Positions 3,731-61,763 of a stretch of DNA of 64,000 nt are shown here, one piece after another. Made by a program: the position numbers and the translations under genes. The first letter of the stretch is position 1, and every line of letters begins with the position of its first letter. Below the pieces are notes generated by a model. It saw only the letters and a list, made by a program, of their open reading frames with translations, ran no database searches and was not told where the DNA came from. Source of the DNA: Octopus sinensis (lineage: Eukaryota); NCBI RefSeq assembly GCF_006345805.1, contig NC_043001.1:94984001-95048000 (forward strand), read 5' to 3'.

Positions 3731-5259
3731 GGAGGGGACCCTGTACCTAGTGTAAAACACAATATATGTATGCTTATGTATGTATCTACATAATGATTTC
3801 ATATTTATATTTACCCATTTATGTAATATGAAAATCATTTAAGTTATACACGACAATACTTATGTTTATGAATGTCAGAATATAGTTATTCACTTGTAGC
3901 AAATACAAGTTCTGTTTCAGCAATAAATATAGAAACAATTAAACATGAAGTAGGAAAATATTTATAAATCTACTTACACCAATTCACTTACGAAAGGGAC
4001 GAATCTTAATTTGATACTATAATAAAAAATGAATTTATTTCATCAATTATATTCTTTGAAGAGTAGTGTATGTGTAAAATTGTTAATTAATATTTGAAAG
4101 AATACTTACTTTGTAATAAACTTATTGCGCTACTTGAATTGTCTCCTTACATATATTTCGATATGATACAAGCATAAACTTGTGGCTTCTTCACTTAAGT
4201 ATTTTTCGAAATAAATTTACTATGCCATTCTCTAACAGTTTGAATGTATTCCGATTTAGTCATCATCATGCATGTTATTTAAAATCCACATGCACTAGTT
4301 ACTTTTCTATATTAAGCGCAAGTGCTTTCCCAAAATCTCTGATTAATTGAAAATTCATTTGTCAAAATTATTCCATCATACGTATATCCGTCGCATGATA
4401 TATTCTTTGAAAGTCAAACATGTCTATATATTAATCAAAGAATATTTGAAATGCTAGCTGGATTTTCTATGTAATTCATTGGTAAAATATATTAGCGACA
4501 TGTCAATATATATATATCGAGAGGTAATATTTGTCTCCTCTTAAACGATGTTGCTCTCTTAGAACATACATTACTACAGCAGTTACTACGAGAGAAACTC
4601 TCTCACTGGCTTTTTGGCAAACGTCCACGTGTTTAAATTTCTTAAGCGTTGGAGATTCAAATCGCTAAAAAATAGTGAAAAGTGAAGATTTATCCATCAC
4701 TACTTCTAGTGCTGACACCACCAGATCATGTGATCTCGACGTTGTTTTATCATGTCAATGATGGACACTCGATCTCAAGAGACAGCAGTGATTCATCTCA
4801 ATGCCAGCGATGAATAGATTCACAGTGTCAGGACAGGCGCTGGTGTTGTCATTAGCTACTTATCTTAAGTAGAGCAGACATATGTCCTCCACACAGCGGT
4901 ATAAATATGAGTGCATTTTGCACCAAAGGAAAGAAGACGCGTGTTTCTCTCATGGTAACGGTAAAATTTACATCCAAGTACGACTAAATAAATACTTCCC
5001 TGAGATTTATTCATATTTGAAGCACGACATTTTGATAAGCATGAGATAATAAAGGAAGACTTACGATGTAAGAGGCGGGCTGTAAAATACAACAAAAATA
5101 ACAATATGTCAATATAAAAGAACGCCACATGAAAGTATGAATACATGAATTACATGAGAGTTTGCGGTTGTTTGTGTGTGTATGTATGTGTTTGTGTGTG
5201 TGTGTGTCTCTCTCTGTTTGTGTGTGTGTTTATGTACGATTGCGTGCGCGGATGTGTGT

Positions 5260-5380
5260 AATTATTGTCAGTTTGTTTCTTGTTAACACAACGTTTCGGT
5301 AGACATGCGCTCCAGGCTTCATCAGGTGTTCTAGGGAAATTTGGAACCTGGGTTCTAATTTCTAAGGTTTTTTCGACGTT

Positions 5381-5381
<1 letters not shown>
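5260..5381 (-). mobile_element. Penelope-like terminal repeat unit with hammerhead motif (copy A)
   Basis: Inverted homologue of 7130-7260. Minus strand reads AACAC-CTGATGA-...-GAAAC-GTT-GTGTT. Confidence 0.7.
5285..5330 (-). ncRNA. Minimal type I hammerhead ribozyme motif (core intact, stem II decayed)
   Basis: Stem I AACAC/GTGTT, CUGAUGA and GAAA boxes, loopless palindromic stem III (AACGTT), GUU triplet. Confidence 0.6.
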
Positions 5382-5820
<439 letters not shown>

Positions 5821-6301
5821 GTCTTTGCACAGCCTCTAACGCTGGAAATGTATTACAGTGTCTGCTGATCACTACCAATGAACTAAGGTAACATTTCATA
5901 TTTTTCGAGCGCCGTCCGGAGAGCGGTGCTGCTTTCTACAAGTGCTCCACCCTTATGGCAACCACTATTTGTTCCATATACATCCAAGATTTTTATTCAC
6001 TGTTCCTAGGTCTCCGACAATTATTGGTAACATGTCATATCAATCGACATTTCTTTCTTCTTTATTGCATATCTTGTTGTCAGCTGGGCATACTATATCT
6101 CTGATCCAGCATAGTTTGGTTTCTTTCTAAATTAAGACTATGTCTGGTTTCCTATTATGTATCTCATAGACGCATTGGATAATAAAATCCCACAGGATCT
6201 TTGCAATATCGTTTTCGAGTTCTGGTGGTACCAATATTTTGCTCCGTCAAGTCCATTCATGTTGAAAAGTGTCCAATGGAGAGACTTGATACAATTGTCG
6301 G
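5821..6301 (-). mobile_element. Decayed 3' end of a Dong/R4-type LINE (RLE domain plus 3' UTR)
   Basis: Minus-strand remnants SDNCIKSLHW..KYWYHQ, ETKLCWIRDIVCPADNKI and LPIIVGDLGTV match R4 RLE motifs. Ends in (AAT)n on its own strand. Confidence 0.75.
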
Positions 6302-6320
6302 AATAATAATAATAATAATG

Positions 6321-6392
<72 letters not shown>

Positions 6393-6395
<3 letters not shown>

Positions 6396-7023
6396 CCCTG
6401 ATGCAGTACCATGCCCTGATGCAGTACCATGCCCTGATGCAGTACCATGCCCTGATGCAGTAATAATGCCCTGATGCAATACCAGGCAGTGGCTCTCATG
6501 GCTTCTGATCTTAACTAATTGGAAGTGTTATCATCTACATTGTTTTGTCTTGGTATAAAAGATGGGCTACAGCAAATATTCTGCTCAATACCACAGATTT
6601 GCTTGTCAGTTGTTTGACCTTAACCAGTTGAACATGTCCCTTAGTGGCTGACGATATGTGCATCTCTGATCACGAGCAGAAGTAGCGGGGGAGCATCATA
6701 GACATGTGTTGAGAGGGATTCTTTGGGGTTTGAATAGTTCACCTCTGGAAACATGGGTGGTTCTTTCAACATCCTTAAACAACGCTTATTTAGGGACCTT
6801 TTGAGCGGGATGGTGCTACTCAACCTGAAGAAAATTCTAACTGGGCCCCACCTGCAAGGTCATGTGCTGTTTATCATGATATGAGATCACCATGTCGCGC
6901 ACATATGGTTGTGATGCATGTGCCTGGTGTACCTTTATCAGACGGGTAGTCATAATGGGTATATTGGGCTTCGTATATTTTACCCCAGTGTCACTTTGAT
7001 GGCATGCACTGCTCTCTCACTCA
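6393..7023. mobile_element. ~630-bp non-coding interspersed element embedded in (AAT)n (copy 1)
   Basis: Highly similar to 61223-61659, flanked by (AAT)n on both sides, same right end CTCTCTCACTC. The left-end 18-mer is repeated about 5 times. Confidence 0.85.
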
Positions 7024-7129
7024 ATAATAATAATAATAATAATAACAACAACAACAACGAAAACAATAATAATAATAATAAAATTAATAATAATAGTAAT
7101 AATCATAATCATAATAATAATAGCAACAA

Positions 7130-7260
7130 CATCGTAAAAATACCTTAGGAATGTAAGGTCTTTCCCCAAGACACCTCATAAACGCTGGAGTGTATACCAG
7201 CCGAAACGTTGTGTTAACAACAATCAATATGAGGACAATTATTCGCCAAATGTAAATGAT
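7130..7260 (+). mobile_element. Penelope-like terminal repeat unit with hammerhead motif (copy B)
   Basis: GACAC-CTCATAA-AC-GCTGG-AGTGTATA-CCAGC-C-GAAAC-GTT-GTGTT at 7170-7215. Stem II is intact and the core is mutated. Confidence 0.65.
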
Positions 7261-7469
7261 ATAAATACTGTACATTTCTGAACATATTGAAACAGAAACA
7301 AATGGTATGCAGAAGAGAGAATCAATGAGAAAAAGAAATATGTTTACAGGTATTAAACTCATAGTTTTATAGTTCTCGGGTAAAATGGCGTTGTAGAATG
7401 TAACTTTCGAATGTAGAGAGGTAGAACAATTATCCGAAATGATTATATTCGACAATTCAGTGTCCTGAT

Positions 7470-21000: not shown

Positions 21001-21150
21001 TACGGGAGTCCCAGAGGAACAGACAGAATTTTGCTTGTATATATGTTTGTTTACGTGTGCATATATATATATATATATATATGCACACGTAAACAAACAC
21101 ATATACTAATTTGTGATATGAGTATGTGTATGCACGTAAGTGTATATATT

Positions 21151-27640: not shown

Positions 27641-27783
<143 letters not shown>

Positions 27784-27790
27784 ATATTAC

Positions 27791-28039
27791 GTATAGGAAG
27801 AATGGAGCTGAACGAAGATTTAACAAAATTCCTTTATTTTATTTTCGACATATGTTTCGAAGTCTGCAAAGTCCCTAATTCCGAATGAATAAGGAGTCCA
27901 TTATACAGCTTTCTCTTCAGCTGCATAATGGACTCCTTATTCATTCGGAATTAGGGACTTTGCAGACTTCGAAACATATGTCGAAAATAAAATAAAGGAA
28001 TTTTGTTAAATCTTCGTTCAGCTCCATTCTTTCCTATAC
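27791..28039. repeat. Near-perfect inverted repeat (~120-bp arms, 8-bp spacer) derived from a Penelope-like terminal repeat
   Basis: Arms 27791-27910 and 27919-28039 differ by one substitution and one 1-bp indel. Contains GAAACATATGTC. Confidence 0.92.
27841..27920 (-). ncRNA. Hammerhead ribozyme motif with long stem II (5' strand of stem I missing)
   Basis: CTGAAGA-GAAAGCTGTA...TGCAGACTTC-GAAAC-ATAT-GTC-GAAAAT. Palindromic stem III and GUC triplet. Confidence 0.6.
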
Positions 28040-29084
28040 TTAATATATTAAACTTCAAATTTCCGCACTAAGGCACGGATTTTATGCCCTTTGGTCGGAA
28101 CTTCAACCGTGCTTTTTCTGTTGTGAGTTTGCTACCCAGGTATCGGTTATCTTTCGAATTATCCGTAATAAGATAATTCATTTGTCTACTTATATATATA
28201 TATATATACACACACACAGAACCTGGAGCCTTGTGGATGGGAAGCCAGCTTCTTACCACACAGTCAATGCTGCACCTACCGCAGTTACATGCGTCTGTTT
28301 AATATGTATGGGTTGGGCTCATGCTCTGTGTATTGTGTGTGTGCGATGGAGAGAAACCGAAGAATAAAACATGCAAATAGAACTAAAAATGAAAAATACA
28401 TTTAAAACAAATACAAAAAACTTAACCGTGAATATATAAAACAAACATTGAAACGTTAAATTATTAGTTGGAAAATGAATAAAACAAAACATTATAATAA
28501 ATAAAATAAAGAAATAAATGAAACAAATGAAAAAATATATAGAAATAATACAATAAAATAAAATATGTTTAAATGGTGTATGGATGATGACACTGGAAGG
28601 AGGGGTTTGAGTCCGAAAGGTGTTTGAGTTCGTAGGGCAACAATGTAGCGCCTGTGCTATGCCAACTTGGGTGTTGGTGTATATCATGTGTTACAATTTC
28701 ACTTACTTTGGAATTACCATACTGACAACCTGTTATTAGATCTCTATACAGCTATATTTCAACGTAGCACGTCAGAAGATTCCTCGGGGTGATATCGGTT
28801 AGTGAGTGACAAGAACATGGTTAAGTAATTTTCTTCAATATTGATTTCAAATTTTGGCACAAGACAAGTAATTTTGGCGAATCCATAATTGATGTTATAT
28901 AATAGGTTACCTCTGCACAGCTGTGCAGAAAGTATTTCTGACTAATTATTTGTAAAATATATGTTACGTGCTGAAATAATTTCGTTTTGAAATTTTTGAA
29001 AACGTTTCTTACTAACTTATTGATAAGAGAAACGATATTTCGTTCCAAGACTGCTAGAAACAATTAACGTACTTGACCCTGATA

Positions 29085-29942: not shown

Positions 29943-31741
29943 TACATATAGCATGTGTTTCCTTTCCTTAAATGTGTTTAAGTGTCGATGTTGCTTGCCT
30001 CTTTCTTTTCTTAATACGTTTGCTTATATAGTTTTGACTTATAATAAAGTATAAAGTACTACACAAAATAATTCATTATACCTTTATTATTTTCACATGG
30101 AATCAACGCTCGGACAATGAGCTATTACGAAATACGCTGACATGTGATCGTTCTGTAATATTCGATACGCTTTGGAATGAAGAGTAGGTATATTTTATCT
30201 AATTTCATATTCATTGGCAACACGTCTACGGTGTTGAGTTAAATTTTTGATAACAAACACTTAAACACATGAACAATCAATGTTAATATTCACATAGACT
30301 GCATACTTTACGGAAATTAATAAAATAATTAATAAAATAATTTTAAATGCATACCAACTTCGGATTCCACGACTGTACAAGAAGTAATATTGTGTAGCAT
30401 ACCACAAATTATAACTTTTTCTCAGCCAAGAAACAGAAAAGTTACTAGAATTTTAAGTTTAATTATCATCACCCGTTCTACATACTGCATTGTTAAGCGA
30501 TTATGTACGTGTGTCCCAAAATACATTATTAGCAAAAATTTTTCTTTCAAGATTTTGTTTTAGCTTTATCTCTGATATGAGGTGCGTGCGCATATCGGTC
30601 TCGAAGGAAATCAAGTTTTTATGTCTCGTACGAAGTGTACAGAAAATGTTTAAATTTTCTACCATACTGAACAATATGCCACTATTTCTTGTAATGAAAT
30701 ACAAATTGACATAGATTCTACAACAGTAAAGCCGCTGCTTACTAAAGAAAGAGCAGCTAATTTGAGAACCACAAGATGAATGTAGGAACTTAGTCAAGCC
30801 TAGTGACAATAAATTAGGAAACGAAATATTTTCTCATTGTACTCCATAGGAACTGAACTCTGAGATTTACCATTCATGTAATGGTAGGTTACATGTTCTA
30901 TACAAGTACACTACCAGCGGTAAATTTGAAAAATTAGAATGTATAAGCTCGGGGCATATACTGGATTGCCTCATGCCAAAATGTTTAATCTAATTTATTG
31001 CACCTGCTGAAGAAGACGTCGCCTAGCAAATTATTTTATGAAGTATGAAACCATGTTCCAGGATTTAGATGGTAACTGTTTTGTTTTCATTCCGTTCGAC
31101 GTTTTATCCCTAATAGTGGTTTGGAATTTAACTGTTCTGTCTTACGTGCAAGGAGTCCTATGATGGATATTTCTTATGTGTTTAAATGTACATTGTATAT
31201 ATATATATATATATAACAGAAATGTTTTGTTTATAGTAATTAAATATATGTCCTTTACATTTGCCCACTCCGTCTCTGAAACGACATTGAATGGATAGGT
31301 GCACGAGTGTACAATGCATAAAACATTGAAATATTAGGAGAGCCAAGTGGAATCATGTCTTTTACTGAAGGACATAATACGCTTCCGAGAGTGGGAATGG
31401 TCGATTGTCTCCAATACATGACTGGCACATTTTTGATACTCCCTAATCTGTTCAAAAGCACAATAGAACTCAGCGGAATTTCATTTTGGAGAAAGACAAG
31501 ATACTGCAAGCTAGTCACTTTGTTTGTTTTTTGTAATATAGGTTATGGTTACTTAGAATTATGAAAATTATTATTAGTGGCAGTATCAATATTAACTTCA
31601 GCAGCTGAAGTAATAGTAGTAGTTATAGTAGTATCTCAACTTTAAGAAATGAGCCCAATATACACTATGAGTTTCTTTGCCCTAGGAGTCGGGAAGACAC
31701 TCGGCAAGAAATGGAAGAACATTTGAAAGAAGAAAAAGAAA

Positions 31742-32294: not shown

Positions 32295-32708
32295 GGCTCA
32301 ACTGTTAATTATTTAATTGACTCCAAAATGATGAAAAGAGTAATTAACTTCGGCAGAAATTGAACATAAGGTCGGGGGAAATACCGGTAAGCATTTTAGC
32401 CGGCCTGCTAACAATCCTTCCAATAGTCCACCTTAACGTAAGATAATATGCCTCTATATTTTTCTCCTTTCTACTTTTAACCTAAGCTTATATGTATATA
32501 TATATATACATATAAGCTTAGGTTAAAAGTAGAAAGGAGAAAAATATAGAGGCATATTATCTTACGTTAAGGTGGACTATTGGAAGGATTGTTAGCAGGC
32601 CGGCTAAAATGCTTACCGGTATTTCCCCCGACCTTATGTTCAATTTCTGCCGAAGTTAATTACTCTTTTCATCATTTTGGAGTCAATTAAATAATTAACA
32701 GTTGAGCC
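32295..32708. repeat. Perfect 414-bp palindrome centred on (TA)7
   Basis: 207-bp arms with no mismatch seen, axis at 32501/32502. Confidence 0.95.
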
Positions 32709-35142: not shown

Positions 35143-35682
35143 TCATGTATGTACTGGAAAGTCCCACAGAATGGTTACATTTTCTCCTTCAGTTACAGCC
35201 TCAGGATGGTGATTATACCACTTGTCGGCAGTTTTGATATTGTAATGTCGACTTATTAGCCAGTGGAGATATTGGCCAACTCTGTCATGTCTTAATTTAT
35301 ACTCCACTGGTGCTAAGACTTTACATCCAGAGATTAGGTGGTCCACTGTTTCAATCATGTCGTTGCAGAATCGGCATTTTGGGTCTGCTCCATTTTTCAT
35401 CACATTGGCCTGGTAGTTCCGGGTTAATAGGCTTTGGTCTTGAGCAGCCAGGATGAAACCTTCGCTCTCTGCTTTTAGCCCTGAGCTCCGCAGCCACTGA
35501 TGGGTTTGCTTCTGGTCAACATCAGCTTGTATGCTGCGGGTCACATATTTGCCGTGCAGAGGTTTCTCCTCCCACCTATCAGCCAATTGCTCGTGCGCTT
35601 TTTTCATTGCCATCATTTTCACCTTCTTTGCAACAATAGTTGCCGTACTTCCCTCGGGTTGTTCAGTTTGGGTATCATGCAC
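35143..35682 (-). CDS. Frameshifted continuation: CCHC zinc knuckle and start of RLE
   Basis: WEEKPLHGKY, AAQDQSLLTRNY, CRFCNDMIETVDHLISGC, RHD, ILWDFPVHT, then truncation before the PD-D catalytic motif. Confidence 0.88.
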   Translation of the reverse strand: MHDTQTEQPEGSTATIVAKKVKMMAMKKAHEQLADRWEEKPLHGKYVTRSIQADVDQKQTHQWLRSSGLKAESEGFILAAQDQSLLTRNYQANVMKNGADPKCRFCNDMIETVDHLISGCKVLAPVEYKLRHDRVGQYLHWLISRHYNIKTADKWYNHHPEAVTEGENVTILWDFPVHT

Positions 35683-37520
35683 GAGATCAATGGCAATGTT
35701 TTGCTTTCCTTGATGATAGAATGAAGCTTCTTTCGTCTCTCGTGATTTTCCACGAGCTTTAGCATCCAGTCATTCGATATTTCGAGATATTTGGCCAGTC
35801 CAATTGTGGTTGTTTTGTAAGCTAGTTCAAATTGGATCTGGCCTCGACCTCCTTGGGCTCTGGGAAGGTAAAGGCGATCTACGTCTGCCTTTGGGTGGTG
35901 CATCCTATTACAACTCAGCAGCTTGCGTATTTTTCTATCTATATTCTTTACTTCACTCATATTCCAGTTCAACACATTGTAGCTATAAGTAACAACTGGA
36001 ACTGCTAAGGAATTTATAGCTAACACCTTGTTACGTGCATTTAGTTCAGATTTAAGGACTGCACGAACTCTCCTATAACATTCCTTCCTGATTTTCTCTT
36101 TCATGCTTCCATGCTGAATACCAGAGCCTTCATTTATCCCTAAATATTTGTATGTTTGTTCTTGCTCAAGCTCTCTTATGACTGTGTCAGCACCTAACAC
36201 GACTGAATTTGTGGTCTTCACTTCCCCTTTCTGGAAAGTGGCCTTGGCACACTTCTCAAGTCCAAACTCCATCCCGATGTCATCGCTGAATGCTTTCACG
36301 GTGCGCAATAGGCCTTCAAGTTCATTATTGTCTTTACCATAAAGTTTTAAGTCATCCATATAAAATAGATGGCTTATTTTTTTATTGGCAATTTTATACC
36401 CATACCCTGTTCTGTTTAATTCACTTGTAAGGGGTATTAGGGCTATGCAGAATATTAAAGGTGAAAGTGAGTCACCTTGAAAAATTCCACATTTGATGTT
36501 TATATTTTCTGAGGCAAGTACTCCATTAGAGTGGTATAATTGGAGATTCGTATTCCACAACGACATATTGTGCTTCAGGAAGTTTGAAATCACAGGGGAA
36601 ATTTTGAAGATGTCCAGCGATCTCAAGATCCATGGATGCGGTATACTGTCGAAGGCCTTTTTATAATCAATCCATGCGGTGCTGAGATTTCTGCGCTTGT
36701 TGTGACAGTTCTCAAGGATCATACGATTGATTACCAGTTGATCTTTGCATCCGTAAGAGCCTCGGCGGCACCCTTTTTGTTCAATGGGGAAAATATCGTT
36801 CTTCTCCATGAATGCATATGTTTTCTCCGCCAGGATAGATGTTAGGATTTTATACGTGGTGGATAGACAGGTTATAGGCCGATAGTTTTTTGGAAGGTTG
36901 GTTTCGTTATTCTTTGGGAGTAGGTAAGTAATGCCACTTGCTAACCATTCAGGTGTTTTCTTTGGGTCTCTCATAATTCCATTGAGCAGCTGAAGTAGCT
37001 TACCGTGTGCGCACGGGAGCGATGCGAGCCAGAAATTCGGCACCCTATCTTTACCGGGGGATTTCCAATTATGGGCCTTCGTGAGTGCCTTTCTTAGGTC
37101 TGCTATTGTGATGTCTTCCCATGCTTGTTGTTGTAAATTTTGGTGGGATCCTTCAGTTTGTATAATCCAGTCTGCATTTATGTTGTACGTCTTCTTGTCA
37201 CTCCAAATCCTTTTCCAAAAGTTTTGAACTTCTTCCATGGGAGGGGGGTCTTTAACGGTTACTTTCTCCTTCCCTATTTCTCTGTAGACGTTTTTGGCAT
37301 TGGATGTGAACAGCTTATTTTGCTTGTAAAACTTGTTTCTCTTCTCAAATCTTCGTATTCTTTGGGCTTTTGCTTGGACTTTTTGTTTCAGCGTTTCTTT
37401 TATTGATATCAGTTCTTCTCTTGGTGAGGATCCAAAGTTTCTCTTCATCTTTCTTCCTGTTCTGGATCTTACATCATTTCCACATATTAGTTCATTTAAT
37501 ATTGATATTTCCCCTCTCAT
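35619..37520 (-). CDS. Reverse transcriptase of an R4/Dong LINE (fragment; frame open upstream to ~37590, frameshift near 35700)
   Basis: WKSPGKD, NYRPITCL, EQKGCRRG, WIDYKKAFDSIPH, GIFQGDSLSPLIF, HLFYMDDLKLY, YKYLGI, RLYLPRAQGGRG. Confidence 0.93.
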   Translation of the reverse strand: MRGEISILNELICGNDVRSRTGRKMKRNFGSSPREELISIKETLKQKVQAKAQRIRRFEKRNKFYKQNKLFTSNAKNVYREIGKEKVTVKDPPPMEEVQNFWKRIWSDKKTYNINADWIIQTEGSHQNLQQQAWEDITIADLRKALTKAHNWKSPGKDRVPNFWLASLPCAHGKLLQLLNGIMRDPKKTPEWLASGITYLLPKNNETNLPKNYRPITCLSTTYKILTSILAEKTYAFMEKNDIFPIEQKGCRRGSYGCKDQLVINRMILENCHNKRRNLSTAWIDYKKAFDSIPHPWILRSLDIFKISPVISNFLKHNMSLWNTNLQLYHSNGVLASENINIKCGIFQGDSLSPLIFCIALIPLTSELNRTGYGYKIANKKISHLFYMDDLKLYGKDNNELEGLLRTVKAFSDDIGMEFGLEKCAKATFQKGEVKTTNSVVLGADTVIRELEQEQTYKYLGINEGSGIQHGSMKEKIRKECYRRVRAVLKSELNARNKVLAINSLAVPVVTYSYNVLNWNMSEVKNIDRKIRKLLSCNRMHHPKADVDRLYLPRAQGGRGQIQFELAYKTTTIGLAKYLEISNDWMLKLVENHERRKKLHSIIKESKTLPLISCMIPKLNNPREVRQLLLQRR

Positions 37521-38499
37521 AAATTCAATCTCTTTTTCAATTTTACTTCTCCAGGTTTGATTTCTTCCCAGGTTTTGTTTTCTTTGTTTTCTTCTCTATT
37601 CACAAATAATACAGAACAGCCCTTCAAAATAAGTTAAGAAAATTTACAAATTTACATATCTACGGTTTTCAATCATACATTCGACCAGCTTTTAAAACTT
37701 TGATATCCACAATTGCCTCTGTAAACATCCTTCTTTTTCTTCTCTCTAAAAACATCACGCTTTTCTTTTTTTCTTTTTGTGGACTTACAAAACCCTAAAA
37801 CTTTCTATGAGAATCTGACTTTTCTTTGCTTCCTCCCTGAATATTCAAATATAAATGTAAACATATACTTTTTATTGTGAAAACACACCTGTTCTTCTAA
37901 CTGGACATACAAACATCTCTAGAAAAGTCAACTTCAACCGCCACAATATTACCTTACAGGAAATATACAAACACTTTTTATTGCAATAACACAAACGCAC
38001 GTTGAAAAAAGAAATGATGATGCTACGATTCTCTCTGGTCGAACACAACTTCTCTATTCACAAACAATACAGAACAGCCCTCCCTTAATTTTTCTTAAGC
38101 CTAATAGTAGTAAATATCTGAACTTTTTTTGACCGATAGGACTACACCTAAAGAAGAAAAAAAAAAGACAGTCAGCCAGCCAACCACCAAGCCAGCCAAC
38201 GAGACAGACAGACACTACTGTGATGGTGATAATGATAAAAAAACAAAAATAACAATAATAAGATACTGCTGTGACTACACATAAAACAATATCATTGATG
38301 ACGATGGTGGTGATGGTGATGGTGATGATGATAATGATGACGGTAATGGTGGTGATAATGATGATAGTGATGGTAATGGTGATGATAATAACAATAATAA
38401 GCCGACTACGGCTGCTATAATGGTACGATTATAATTGTAACGGCAATGATGGCCGTCTCCCCCAGAGCCAATCAAAGCTAAAAAATGATAACATTATCG

Positions 38500-39356
38500 T
38501 AGCACCAAAATGTTTTTGGAAACTAAAAGGAAAACTAAATCAGTATACCAAATCGCTTGTCCTATGGTTAATCTGGAAGCGCGTCCCCCAGGGAAGAGCC
38601 AGCCTGGGATCGAAAAGTCATCAACTGGCACAAACTCTTCTCCGAATACGGACATGGATGGTCACTTGAACGGGAAATCCCCCGACTCGAGCCCTCCAAG
38701 TTCACCACCACAACCACCACAGAAAGAAAAATGTAAGCGGAACAAATGGACCCGAGAAGAGTATAAAGAAGTAATATACGCTTATTACTATGCATCTCAA
38801 GAGAGACACACCGCAAACTCTTACAGTATATGGAGAACACGGAATCAAGACAGTAGGCCCTATTTGGACGAGAACAAATTAGCAAATGTGAGGAGGGATA
38901 TCTTTAGAAATAACAGACTCACAGACAGTGAAATAAGCGCGATCAAGCACGCAACGGAAAATGACATAAATATAAGACACAAAGGAAATGAAGAATCAGA
39001 TGAACAGTATAGCCCGCCACGAGGCTTAATTGAAAGACTGCCATCTGACCAAAGTACGCAAAGGCCTGAAGATACAAGAAATTGTATTGTACCTGTTAAA
39101 GATAGCCAGGAAAACAAAAAAAACAACAGTAACTGAAGATCTCGCATTTGCTGAAGAACACAGAGAGTCTATGGCAGAAATGAGGCAGAAAATCCTGAAT
39201 ACGCTTGAAGTTGTAAGACATACAAGTATGAATGATAGAGAACCGCTTCATAAACTCCCAAATACAAACCAAAATAAAAAACAAATCCAAATTGGCAACT
39301 ATGTAACAAATGAAATAATACGAGAATTAAAACCTGATTTTACTGAGTTAAATGAA

Positions 39357-52138: not shown

Positions 52139-52187
<49 letters not shown>

Positions 52188-52235
52188 TATACATATATAT
52201 ATGTATATATACATATATATAGGTGTGTATGTGTG

Positions 52236-52549
52236 TATGTTGTATAAAAGATTGTGGGTAATGCCAAAACAACGCGAAGTAAATGCAAGGTAAATCACAA
52301 GGAAACAAATATGTGAATTAAGGTCAACTTAACTGTGTATCCAGTATTTCAGGAGTTATTACCTCATTTTCAAGAAATTGACGAACATTCACATCGGCAA
52401 CATTCTTTAATTTCTTGAAAAGGGGGTCATAACCCGAAATACTGAATACAGTTCAGTCTACATAAATTCACATACCTGTTTTCTTGTAAATTACCTTGCA
52501 TTTGCTTCAAATTGTTTTGGCCTTACCCATGATCTTTTATAAAATATAC
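52236..52549. mobile_element. Long imperfect palindromic MITE-like element
   Basis: Arms TATAAAAGATTGTGGGTAATGCCAAAACAA..AAATGCAAGGTAA..TTTTCAAGAAATT and AATTTCTTGAAAA..TTACCTTGCATTT..TTGTTTTGGCCTTACCCATGATCTTTTATA. Confidence 0.8.
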
Positions 52550-52578
52550 TCTACACAATGCTTCGCAGTAATTATTCC

Positions 52579-52624
<46 letters not shown>

Positions 52625-60837: not shown

Positions 60838-61151
60838 GAAACTCTCAAAATACAAAGACCTGGAAATAGAGGTAACTAGAATGTGGAATCTGAAAACAGA
60901 AACAATTCCTATCATAGTAGGTGCATTAGGCATGATAAAAAAGCATTCAGACAAATACATAACAAAAACACCAGGACTTACAAACACATATAACATACAG
61001 AAAATTGCACTACTAGGCACTGCACACATCCTACGCAGAACATTTTCCATACAATAACCATCAGAGCATCACAACAAATCAGAGCACATACCCAAGGCAC
61101 ACAGAGCTGCGCTCGGTAGTGAAGTGAAAGCACGCTATAAAAATAAAACTA

Positions 61152-61157
<6 letters not shown>
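60836..61157 (+). mobile_element. Young 5'-truncated Dong/R4 3' end inserted in (AAT)n
   Basis: Open frame KLSKYKDLEIEVTRMWNLKTETIPIIVGALGMIKK..IQKIALLGTAHILRRTF-stop, then 3' UTR, with (AAT)n on both sides. Confidence 0.92.
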
Positions 61158-61222
<65 letters not shown>

Positions 61223-61659
61223 TCAATAGCACAGATTTGCTTGTCAGTTGTTTGACCTTAACCAGTTGAGCATGTCCCTTAGTGGCTGACGATATGTGCA
61301 TCTCTGATCACGAGCAGAAGTAGTGGGGGAGCATCATAGCCATGTGTTGAGAGGGATTCTTTGGGGTTTGAATAATTCACCTCTGGATACATGGGTGGTT
61401 CTTTCAACATCCTTAAACAACCCTTATTCAGGGACCTTTTGAGCGGGATGGGCTACTCAACCTGAAGAAATTTCTAACTGGGCCCCACCTGCAAGGTCAT
61501 GTGCTGTTTATCTTGATATGAGATCACCATGTCGTGCACATATGGTTGTGATACATGTGCCTGGTGTACCCTTATCAGACGGGTAGTCATGATGGGTATA
61601 TTGGGCTTCGTATATTTTACCCCAGTGTCATTTTGATGGCATGCACTGCTCTCTCACTC
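61223..61659. mobile_element. Non-coding (AAT)n-embedded element, copy 2 (left-truncated)
   Basis: Colinear with 6586-7023 with few substitutions, flanked by (AAT)n. Confidence 0.88.
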
Positions 61660-61693
61660 AATAATAATAATCACAATAATAATAATTATAATG

Positions 61694-61762
<69 letters not shown>

Positions 61763-61763
<1 letters not shown>

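Follow-up and report, generated by a model that had tools for sequence, protein, structure and literature searches.

A non-coding element of (AAT)n tracts in Octopus sinensis and its likely relation to Dong/R4 retrotransposons

Features of the locus

The window analysed is a 64,000-nucleotide stretch of the Octopus sinensis genome (NC_043001.1, positions 94,984,001 to 95,048,000 of the forward strand). Two copies of a short non-coding element were identified in it, one of full length and one truncated at its 5' side, and the features at these two places are as follows.

5821..6301, minus strand: 5'-truncated Dong-C fragment with the RLE end and the 3' UTR, hairpin at 5851-5898, opposite in orientation to copy 1
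6302..6392, plus strand: (AAT)n target tract, 5' of copy 1
6393..6465, plus strand: four tandem 18-nt copies of the 5' end of copy 1 itself
6466..7022, plus strand: copy 1, full-length element of 557 bp, which begins ATGCCCTG and ends CTCACTC, with the same ends in the 30 top loci
6568..6736, plus strand: internal 170-bp segment, common to an inverted-repeat (MITE-like) family of about 500 bp (L113:4650-5150, L033:91-581, L162:4210-4637)
6923..6971, plus strand: predicted hairpin of copy 1, loop GGGTA at 6944-6948, weakened by two private changes
7023..7122, plus strand: (AAT)n tract, 3' of copy 1
60839..61154, plus strand: 5'-truncated Dong-A fragment with the last 72 codons and the 3' UTR, variant hairpin at 61080-61129
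61155..61222, plus strand: (AAT)n between the Dong-A fragment and copy 2
61223..61659, plus strand: copy 2, 5'-truncated, element positions 118 to the end
61560..61608, plus strand: hairpin of copy 2, all 15 model pairs formed (model R2, 19.7 bits, E 0.0032)
61660..61763, plus strand: (AAT)n, 3' of copy 2

Copy 1 and copy 2 were 96.4% identical over 438 bp (6585-7022 and 61223-61659). Both lay between (AAT)n tracts and shared the right end CTCACTC followed by AAT, in agreement with an earlier note on this DNA, which had described two similar copies of one polarity relative to the microsatellite. The same note had put the element at about 630 bp; the element stood, but the length did not, since the unit is 557 bp and the additional 73 bp are repeats of its own 5' end (6393-6465), likely a by-product of integration. 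No credible open reading frame existed in the element, the longest stop-free frame having 59 codons, as the note had also stated. The commonest 5' junction was TAATAA followed by ATGCCC, observed in 20 of 32 full-length ends without duplication. Near-identical sequence was contained in public DNA runs under five organism codes.

Abundance, target and truncation of the element

The two quantities by which the earlier note had proposed to check its idea, the TAA-flanked fraction of the copies and the side on which they are truncated, were measured in 108 pieces of 10 kb (1.08 Mb), taken at round coordinates from 25 large contigs and thus spaced rather than strictly random. Fifteen element copies were present in this sample, which gave an estimate of about 38,000 copies genome-wide (Poisson range about 21,000-62,000). 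The 5' flank was visible in 14 copies, and in 12 of them it was AAT, against 0.43% of random positions; of the 223 matches to a very abundant control SINE (S1), just 20 were preceded by AAT. In addition, a search of the 2.72 Gb genome gave 5,055 candidates, 40 of which were scored, and the 30 best loci all carried AAT on both sides and an identical right end.

Most copies therefore lie in AAT tracts, and the earlier view that the element is found only inside (AAT)n held for those 12 flanks; it failed for the other two, one of which was (ACT)n and another a junction with another SINE, and for the 170-bp piece in the MITE-like family. This piece, element positions about 101-269 alone, was seen within an inverted-repeat element outside AAT at 3 of 18 places in the 1.08 Mb sample. 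In the MITE-like copies it lay directly against one of the inverted arms, on the inner side, and is likely a captured fragment. The junction between the two was a frequent loose end in the public DNA runs X1 and X8.

Truncation of the copies falls on the 5' side. The 3' end was intact in 13 of 15 copies of the sample and the 5' end was full-length in 6 of 14, while 30 intact 3' ends and 18 full 5' ends were counted in a wider set of 38 matches. In non-LTR elements, copies that agree at the 3' end but begin at different points on the 5' side are the outcome of target-primed reverse transcription (TPRT) of plus-strand RNA. The same combination in the element thus points to TPRT of plus-strand element RNA, and the presence of AAT upstream of 5'-truncated copies as well indicates that the tract pre-existed as a target and was not only a tail. 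The pattern is that of TPRT into existing AAT tracts, with the polarity of Dong/R4 LINEs. The copies were about 82% to 99% identical to the element consensus and the subfamily variants were linked, which indicates a long activity reaching recent time.

The tandem repeats at the 5' side span the 5'-most 15-30 nt of the element, with about ten of them at one locus (L187). They were found in 12 of 44 full-length element ends when loci recovered by a duplicated query were included, and in 1 of 38 copies collected independently of such a query; in this unselected set they were rarer than at Dong-A 5' junctions, 10 of 30 of which carried the same kind of duplication. R2 is likewise known for 5' junctions that vary and carry duplications, but what is duplicated in R2 belongs to the target (PMC3774820). 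At four loci (L023, L024, L026 and L016), 2-4 element copies stood head-to-tail with short AAT tracts between them.

Dong families as candidate drivers

Dong elements target TAA repeats (PMC3812793, PMC1635306). The abundance of Dong-R4 in O. vulgaris has been reported, with 51 consensus families, more than were sampled here (PMC13282606). Among the LINE 3' ends of RLE type at the loci of this study, at least 11 families with several copies could be distinguished, each followed by AAT in the polarity of the element. Intact open reading frames of 1,235 aa with RT, CCHC and RLE motifs were revealed in Dong-E (L261, L262), and all of its best PDB matches were R2 proteins; open frames of Dong-B had about 1,270 aa, up to about 1,300 aa. 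The name Dong/R4 is used here on the basis of the RLE architecture, the AAT target and PMC13282606, not of a tree.

A Dong fragment lies one microsatellite tract away from each element copy in the window, as the earlier note had pointed out. This was correct as an observation but carried little as an argument: a Dong piece adjoined 5 of 15 element copies and 33 of 118 other AAT tracts, so there was no enrichment, and such neighbourhood is weak evidence because other tracts have it as well. Across 30 loci, the neighbours beyond the AAT tracts differed from copy to copy. Varied neighbours, together with the lack of closeness to Dong pieces and of homology to the Dong-A, Dong-B and Dong-E stretches, argue that the element is not the UTR of a sampled autonomous element, the reading that the note had set against its own.

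Several further observations were made on the LINEs of these tracts. In one long Dong-E copy of the window (35143-37595, minus strand, and 38492-39136, plus strand), the N-terminal part and the RT part run in opposite directions; the copy is broken in its RLE region and continues from there into the 3' end of family F5. Dong-B (L242-L260) and Dong-E (L211-L240, L261-L262) have long 5' UTRs in which common degenerate GAT/AAT repeats, and some common letters flanking them, could be recognised by eye. Relatives of Dong-E in public assemblies (P0001-P0043) showed 57-67% identity, which is high for a LINE. LINE 3' ends of the opposite (ATT) polarity occurred in the same tracts at L015, L077, L108 and L221.

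A hairpin common to Dong 3' UTRs and predicted in the element

Folding of Dong 3' UTRs gave one recurring hairpin of 48 nt. Its outer stem, 9 bp long, has CC at its end; a 3-nt bulge with A as the last base, an inner stem of 6 bp and a C-[NGGNW]-G loop follow. Three such hairpins were located in Dong 3' UTRs of the window (5851-5898, 31670-31717 and 61080-61129). Nine octopus Dong families could be aligned over it without gaps and with covariation, 74.8% of the cells being paired, a value reached by 0 of 500 shuffles.

The hairpin was also sought in Dong relatives from a metagenome set of 80 loci (L295-L374). A first metagenome scan found nothing. Of the 54 loci then scored, 6 were too short; among the remaining 48, the hairpin had a score of 14 bits or more in the 3' UTRs of 30, compared with 0 of 48 on the antisense. 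Its loop stood mostly 47-73 nt before the AAT tail, and 88 and 143 nt before it in two cases. A first Infernal model (model R1), run on 45 of the 80 loci, placed 24 of 25 matches on the sense strand, nearly all just past the ORF, and 14 of the 15 pairs changed on both sides among 24 distinct matches, in an alignment that was fitted to the model. Thus the 48-nt hairpin is conserved in AAT-tailed Dong-like LINEs of this genome and of unrelated metagenome contigs, and it may deserve an RNA family model of its own.

A hairpin of the same fold is predicted about 80 nt from the 3' end of the element, deviating from that of Dong by a 1-nt insertion, by U instead of G after the conserved A and by a loop farther from the tail than the 47-73 nt of most Dong. 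A log-odds model whose training set was seven Dong families alone gave the element 18.0 bits. None of 700 dinucleotide shuffles was as high, and a single one of 700 genomic windows scored above it, which was itself a Dong-B UTR. For comparison, Dong families scored 14-39 bits when left out in turn, six held-out ends 12-22 bits, and 12 stretches of other repeats at most 8.5 bits. Five ends fell below 1 bit and were missed by this model: Dong-A, at 0.3 bits, and the single ends F12-F15.

The Infernal models were less uniform. Model R1 matched the element hairpin weakly (9-16.6 bits, E from 0.006 to above 1), at a level equalled by a partial noise match in L109; the hairpin of copy 1 was its best match within the element, at 6.2 bits (E 0.45), and that of copy 2 had 10.9 bits (E 0.72). 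A second model (model R2), built from non-host Dong matches, gave 12.5-24.2 bits on element hairpins and 11.9-17.8 bits on Dong-A. In ten random loci it matched seven element copies at 12.6-23.9 bits, and within a single element copy E was 0.005. The hairpin of copy 2 was the second-best match of model R2 in the whole window, while that of copy 1 had none at E of 2 or below. These values are to be read with the motif having been spotted by eye before the models were made, the training set of model R2 having been chosen with model R1, and Infernal E-values being rough. All three subfamily polymorphisms in the element stem are transitions that preserve pairing, which is weak evidence when taken alone.

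Proposed mechanism of insertion

The element is likely a site-specific passenger retroposon of Dong that did not derive from a tRNA. Its link with Dong is drawn from the shared target and polarity, the TPRT-type truncation and the common 3' hairpin. The earlier proposal of a site-specific, non-tRNA retroposon using the R4 RT and RLE is supported in this respect, and that the enzyme in use is the one of Dong is what we infer.

With good confidence, though short of certainty, we propose that plus-strand RNA of the element is bound by Dong protein through the hairpin and inserted into AAT tracts by TPRT. The RNA would end in a few AAT units, and the hairpin would be held by the Dong protein, whose endonuclease would nick a pre-existing AAT/ATT tract. 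Reverse transcription would start at the nick and often stop early, and the last 15-30 nt could be re-copied, giving the tandem duplications at the 5' end. For its 5' end to be fixed, the element must either be transcribed from an internal promoter or have its RNA cleaved at a set site, and our best guess is that transcription starts from an internal promoter of non-tRNA type.

If this is true, driver-passenger pairs would be extended to microsatellite-targeting Dong/R4 LINEs, with about 2-6 x 10^4 copies, and a passenger would be tied to its driver even where no common tail is detectable by BLAST. The conserved 3' hairpin would be a testable candidate for the choice of RNA by Dong proteins, and it bears on R2-type gene-insertion tools and on AAT tracts as landing pads in cephalopod genomes. 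More tentatively, and with somewhat less than even expectation, an RNA unrelated to tRNA, 7SL, 5S or a LINE body might have become an AAT retroposon by means of the roughly 48-nt Dong hairpin, which would then be a portable structural tag, sufficient for any RNA and possibly recognised by several Dong families.

Alternative origins of the element

The mechanism could be the same while the origin differs, with the element being an internally deleted derivative (5' UTR joined to 3' UTR, like an R2 SIDE) of an extinct or unsampled Dong. The Dong-type hairpin in the element agrees with this, and so does the finding that the 3' UTRs of different Dong families are no longer recognisably alike; O. 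vulgaris has more Dong-R4 families than were sampled, 51 according to PMC13282606, and the sampled Dong-B and Dong-E sequence stops short of the true 5' ends. However, alignment of the element ends to UTRs of R4 families, from which the earlier note had looked for a relation, gave no primary-sequence match: none of 27 3' ends adjacent to Dong showed homology (P at best 0.074 against shuffles; a few single ends were not Dong), and there was no match to the bodies of Dong-A, Dong-B and Dong-E, the complete 5' end of Dong-A or the 5' stretches reached in Dong-B and Dong-E. In four public DNA runs, the last 88 nt of the element were not frequently joined to foreign sequence in the 24 loose ends listed, beyond which there were 384 further rows. 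An HDV-like descriptor had 0 matches on either strand of the element, this descriptor being without a positive control in this genome, where its 4-mismatch match in the Dong-A 5' end was equalled by 3 of 30 shuffles. Such an origin is thus rather unlikely in our estimation; if true, the mechanism would be kept and the novelty would be less.

Two candidate signs of relationship were set aside. An alignment of the Dong-C and element 3' ends made by eye was rejected as homology (P 0.074), other element windows having scored higher. Element 5' parts were found fused to internal Dong sequence without AAT at L024/L263, L104 and L195 (Dong by eye in the last), and deletion at Dong 5' junctions explains these three fusions as well as template switching does.

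An ordinary SINE, with a tRNA-derived head decayed past detection and a Dong-derived tail, would have the defined 5' end, the size and the subfamily structure that the element has, and the first 40 nt are faintly like tRNA-Lys (z 1.2). Against 27 genomic tRNAs of six amino-acid types, however, the best P was 0.11, whereas a tRNA-like SINE used as control reached z values up to 7.7. No B-box was present within one substitution and three internal T4 runs were; Rfam gave only noise on both strands of the element, and ARAGORN found 0 tRNA genes in the 64-kb window, so the absence of tRNA boxes reported by the earlier note was confirmed and a decayed tRNA head is improbable. Folding of the whole element was unremarkable (z -0.67 on the plus and +0.93 on the minus strand, local windows reaching only about -2.6).

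It is more doubtful still that another LINE mobilises the element, either an (ATT)n-oriented family of the same tracts or an RTE or CR1 element that only makes the microsatellite tail. A LINE 3' end of ATT polarity is indeed present in these tracts, and RTE, CR1 and Tx1 families are reported as active in O. vulgaris (PMC13282606). In the ATT polarity, though, the fixed end of the element would become its 5' end and the truncations would be 3', the reverse of TPRT, and no similarity to the ATT LINE 3' end was detected on either strand (best E 0.38). LINEs that make only a tail would leave the AAT upstream of truncated copies unexplained, and the RTE 3' region tested was without the hairpin (2.7 bits).

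That the element is a non-autonomous DNA transposon or a derivative of a Helitron aimed at microsatellites, for which the defined ends and the 170-bp piece common to the inverted-repeat element might speak, is hardly credible and largely refuted by the polar truncation, as one-sided truncation and 5' tandem duplications are signatures of retrotransposition, terminal inverted repeats are absent (the window self-BLAST gave no inverted self-match, in line with the earlier note), and the piece in the MITE adjoins the inner edge of an arm like a captured insert.

Comparison with known systems

Taken as a passenger retroposon of Dong, the element appears by analogy to work like EhSINE1 and the R2 SIDEs, while it belongs to neither. 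With Dong elements themselves (Bombyx Dong, DongAg, DongBg and Dong-R4 of O. vulgaris) it shares the target repeat, the polarity, the fixed 3' end, the 5' truncation and the 3' hairpin (PMC3812793, PMC1635306, PMC3774820, PMC13282606), and it differs from them in having no ORF and no detectable homology to the sampled families. Bombyx Dong has an HDV-like ribozyme, whereas none was found in the element.

EhSINE1 of Entamoeba histolytica, the partner of EhLINE1, resembles the element in its length of 500-600 bp, in lacking both an ORF and a clear tRNA head and in having an RLE partner LINE, but is described with about 70 bp of 3' sequence common with its LINE and without targeted insertion (PMC2996970, PMC1635306). 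The element, by contrast, has just a fold and a few bases in common with Dong, and its copies are restricted to one microsatellite. The SIDEs of Drosophila R2 are non-autonomous and site-specific too, depending on an RLE-type LINE that recognises the 3' UTR; they combine a 5' ribozyme with an R2/R1 3' end and sit at rDNA sites (PMC3414825). Unlike them, the element has no ribozyme or parental homology that could be found, and has tens of thousands of dispersed copies.

Bipartite non-autonomous LINEs are likewise ORF-less LINE passengers without a small-RNA head; the clades for which PMC5786205 lists them are RTE, Ingi, Vingi and R2, and R4/Dong does not appear there. The element may be of bipartite origin, though its 5' part resembled neither the 5' end of Dong-A nor the Dong-B and Dong-E stretches reached. 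Neither the element nor the Dong hairpin was described in the titles and abstracts of the literature searched; Repbase, Dfam and the O. vulgaris Zenodo library were outside this search, and the family may already be held in one of them as an unclassified SINE.

Other features of the window

Short AAT-flanked ends of hammerhead-like appearance were seen at 7137-7220 (plus strand) and 5285-5335 (minus strand) of the window and at L048, which we take to resemble minimal hammerheads of the Penelope type; an Rfam scan of 5200-7400 gave no match. Long palindromes were also observed in the window at 32295-32708, where the palindrome is perfect over 414 bp, and at 27782-28048, 52156-52623 and 21037-21106.
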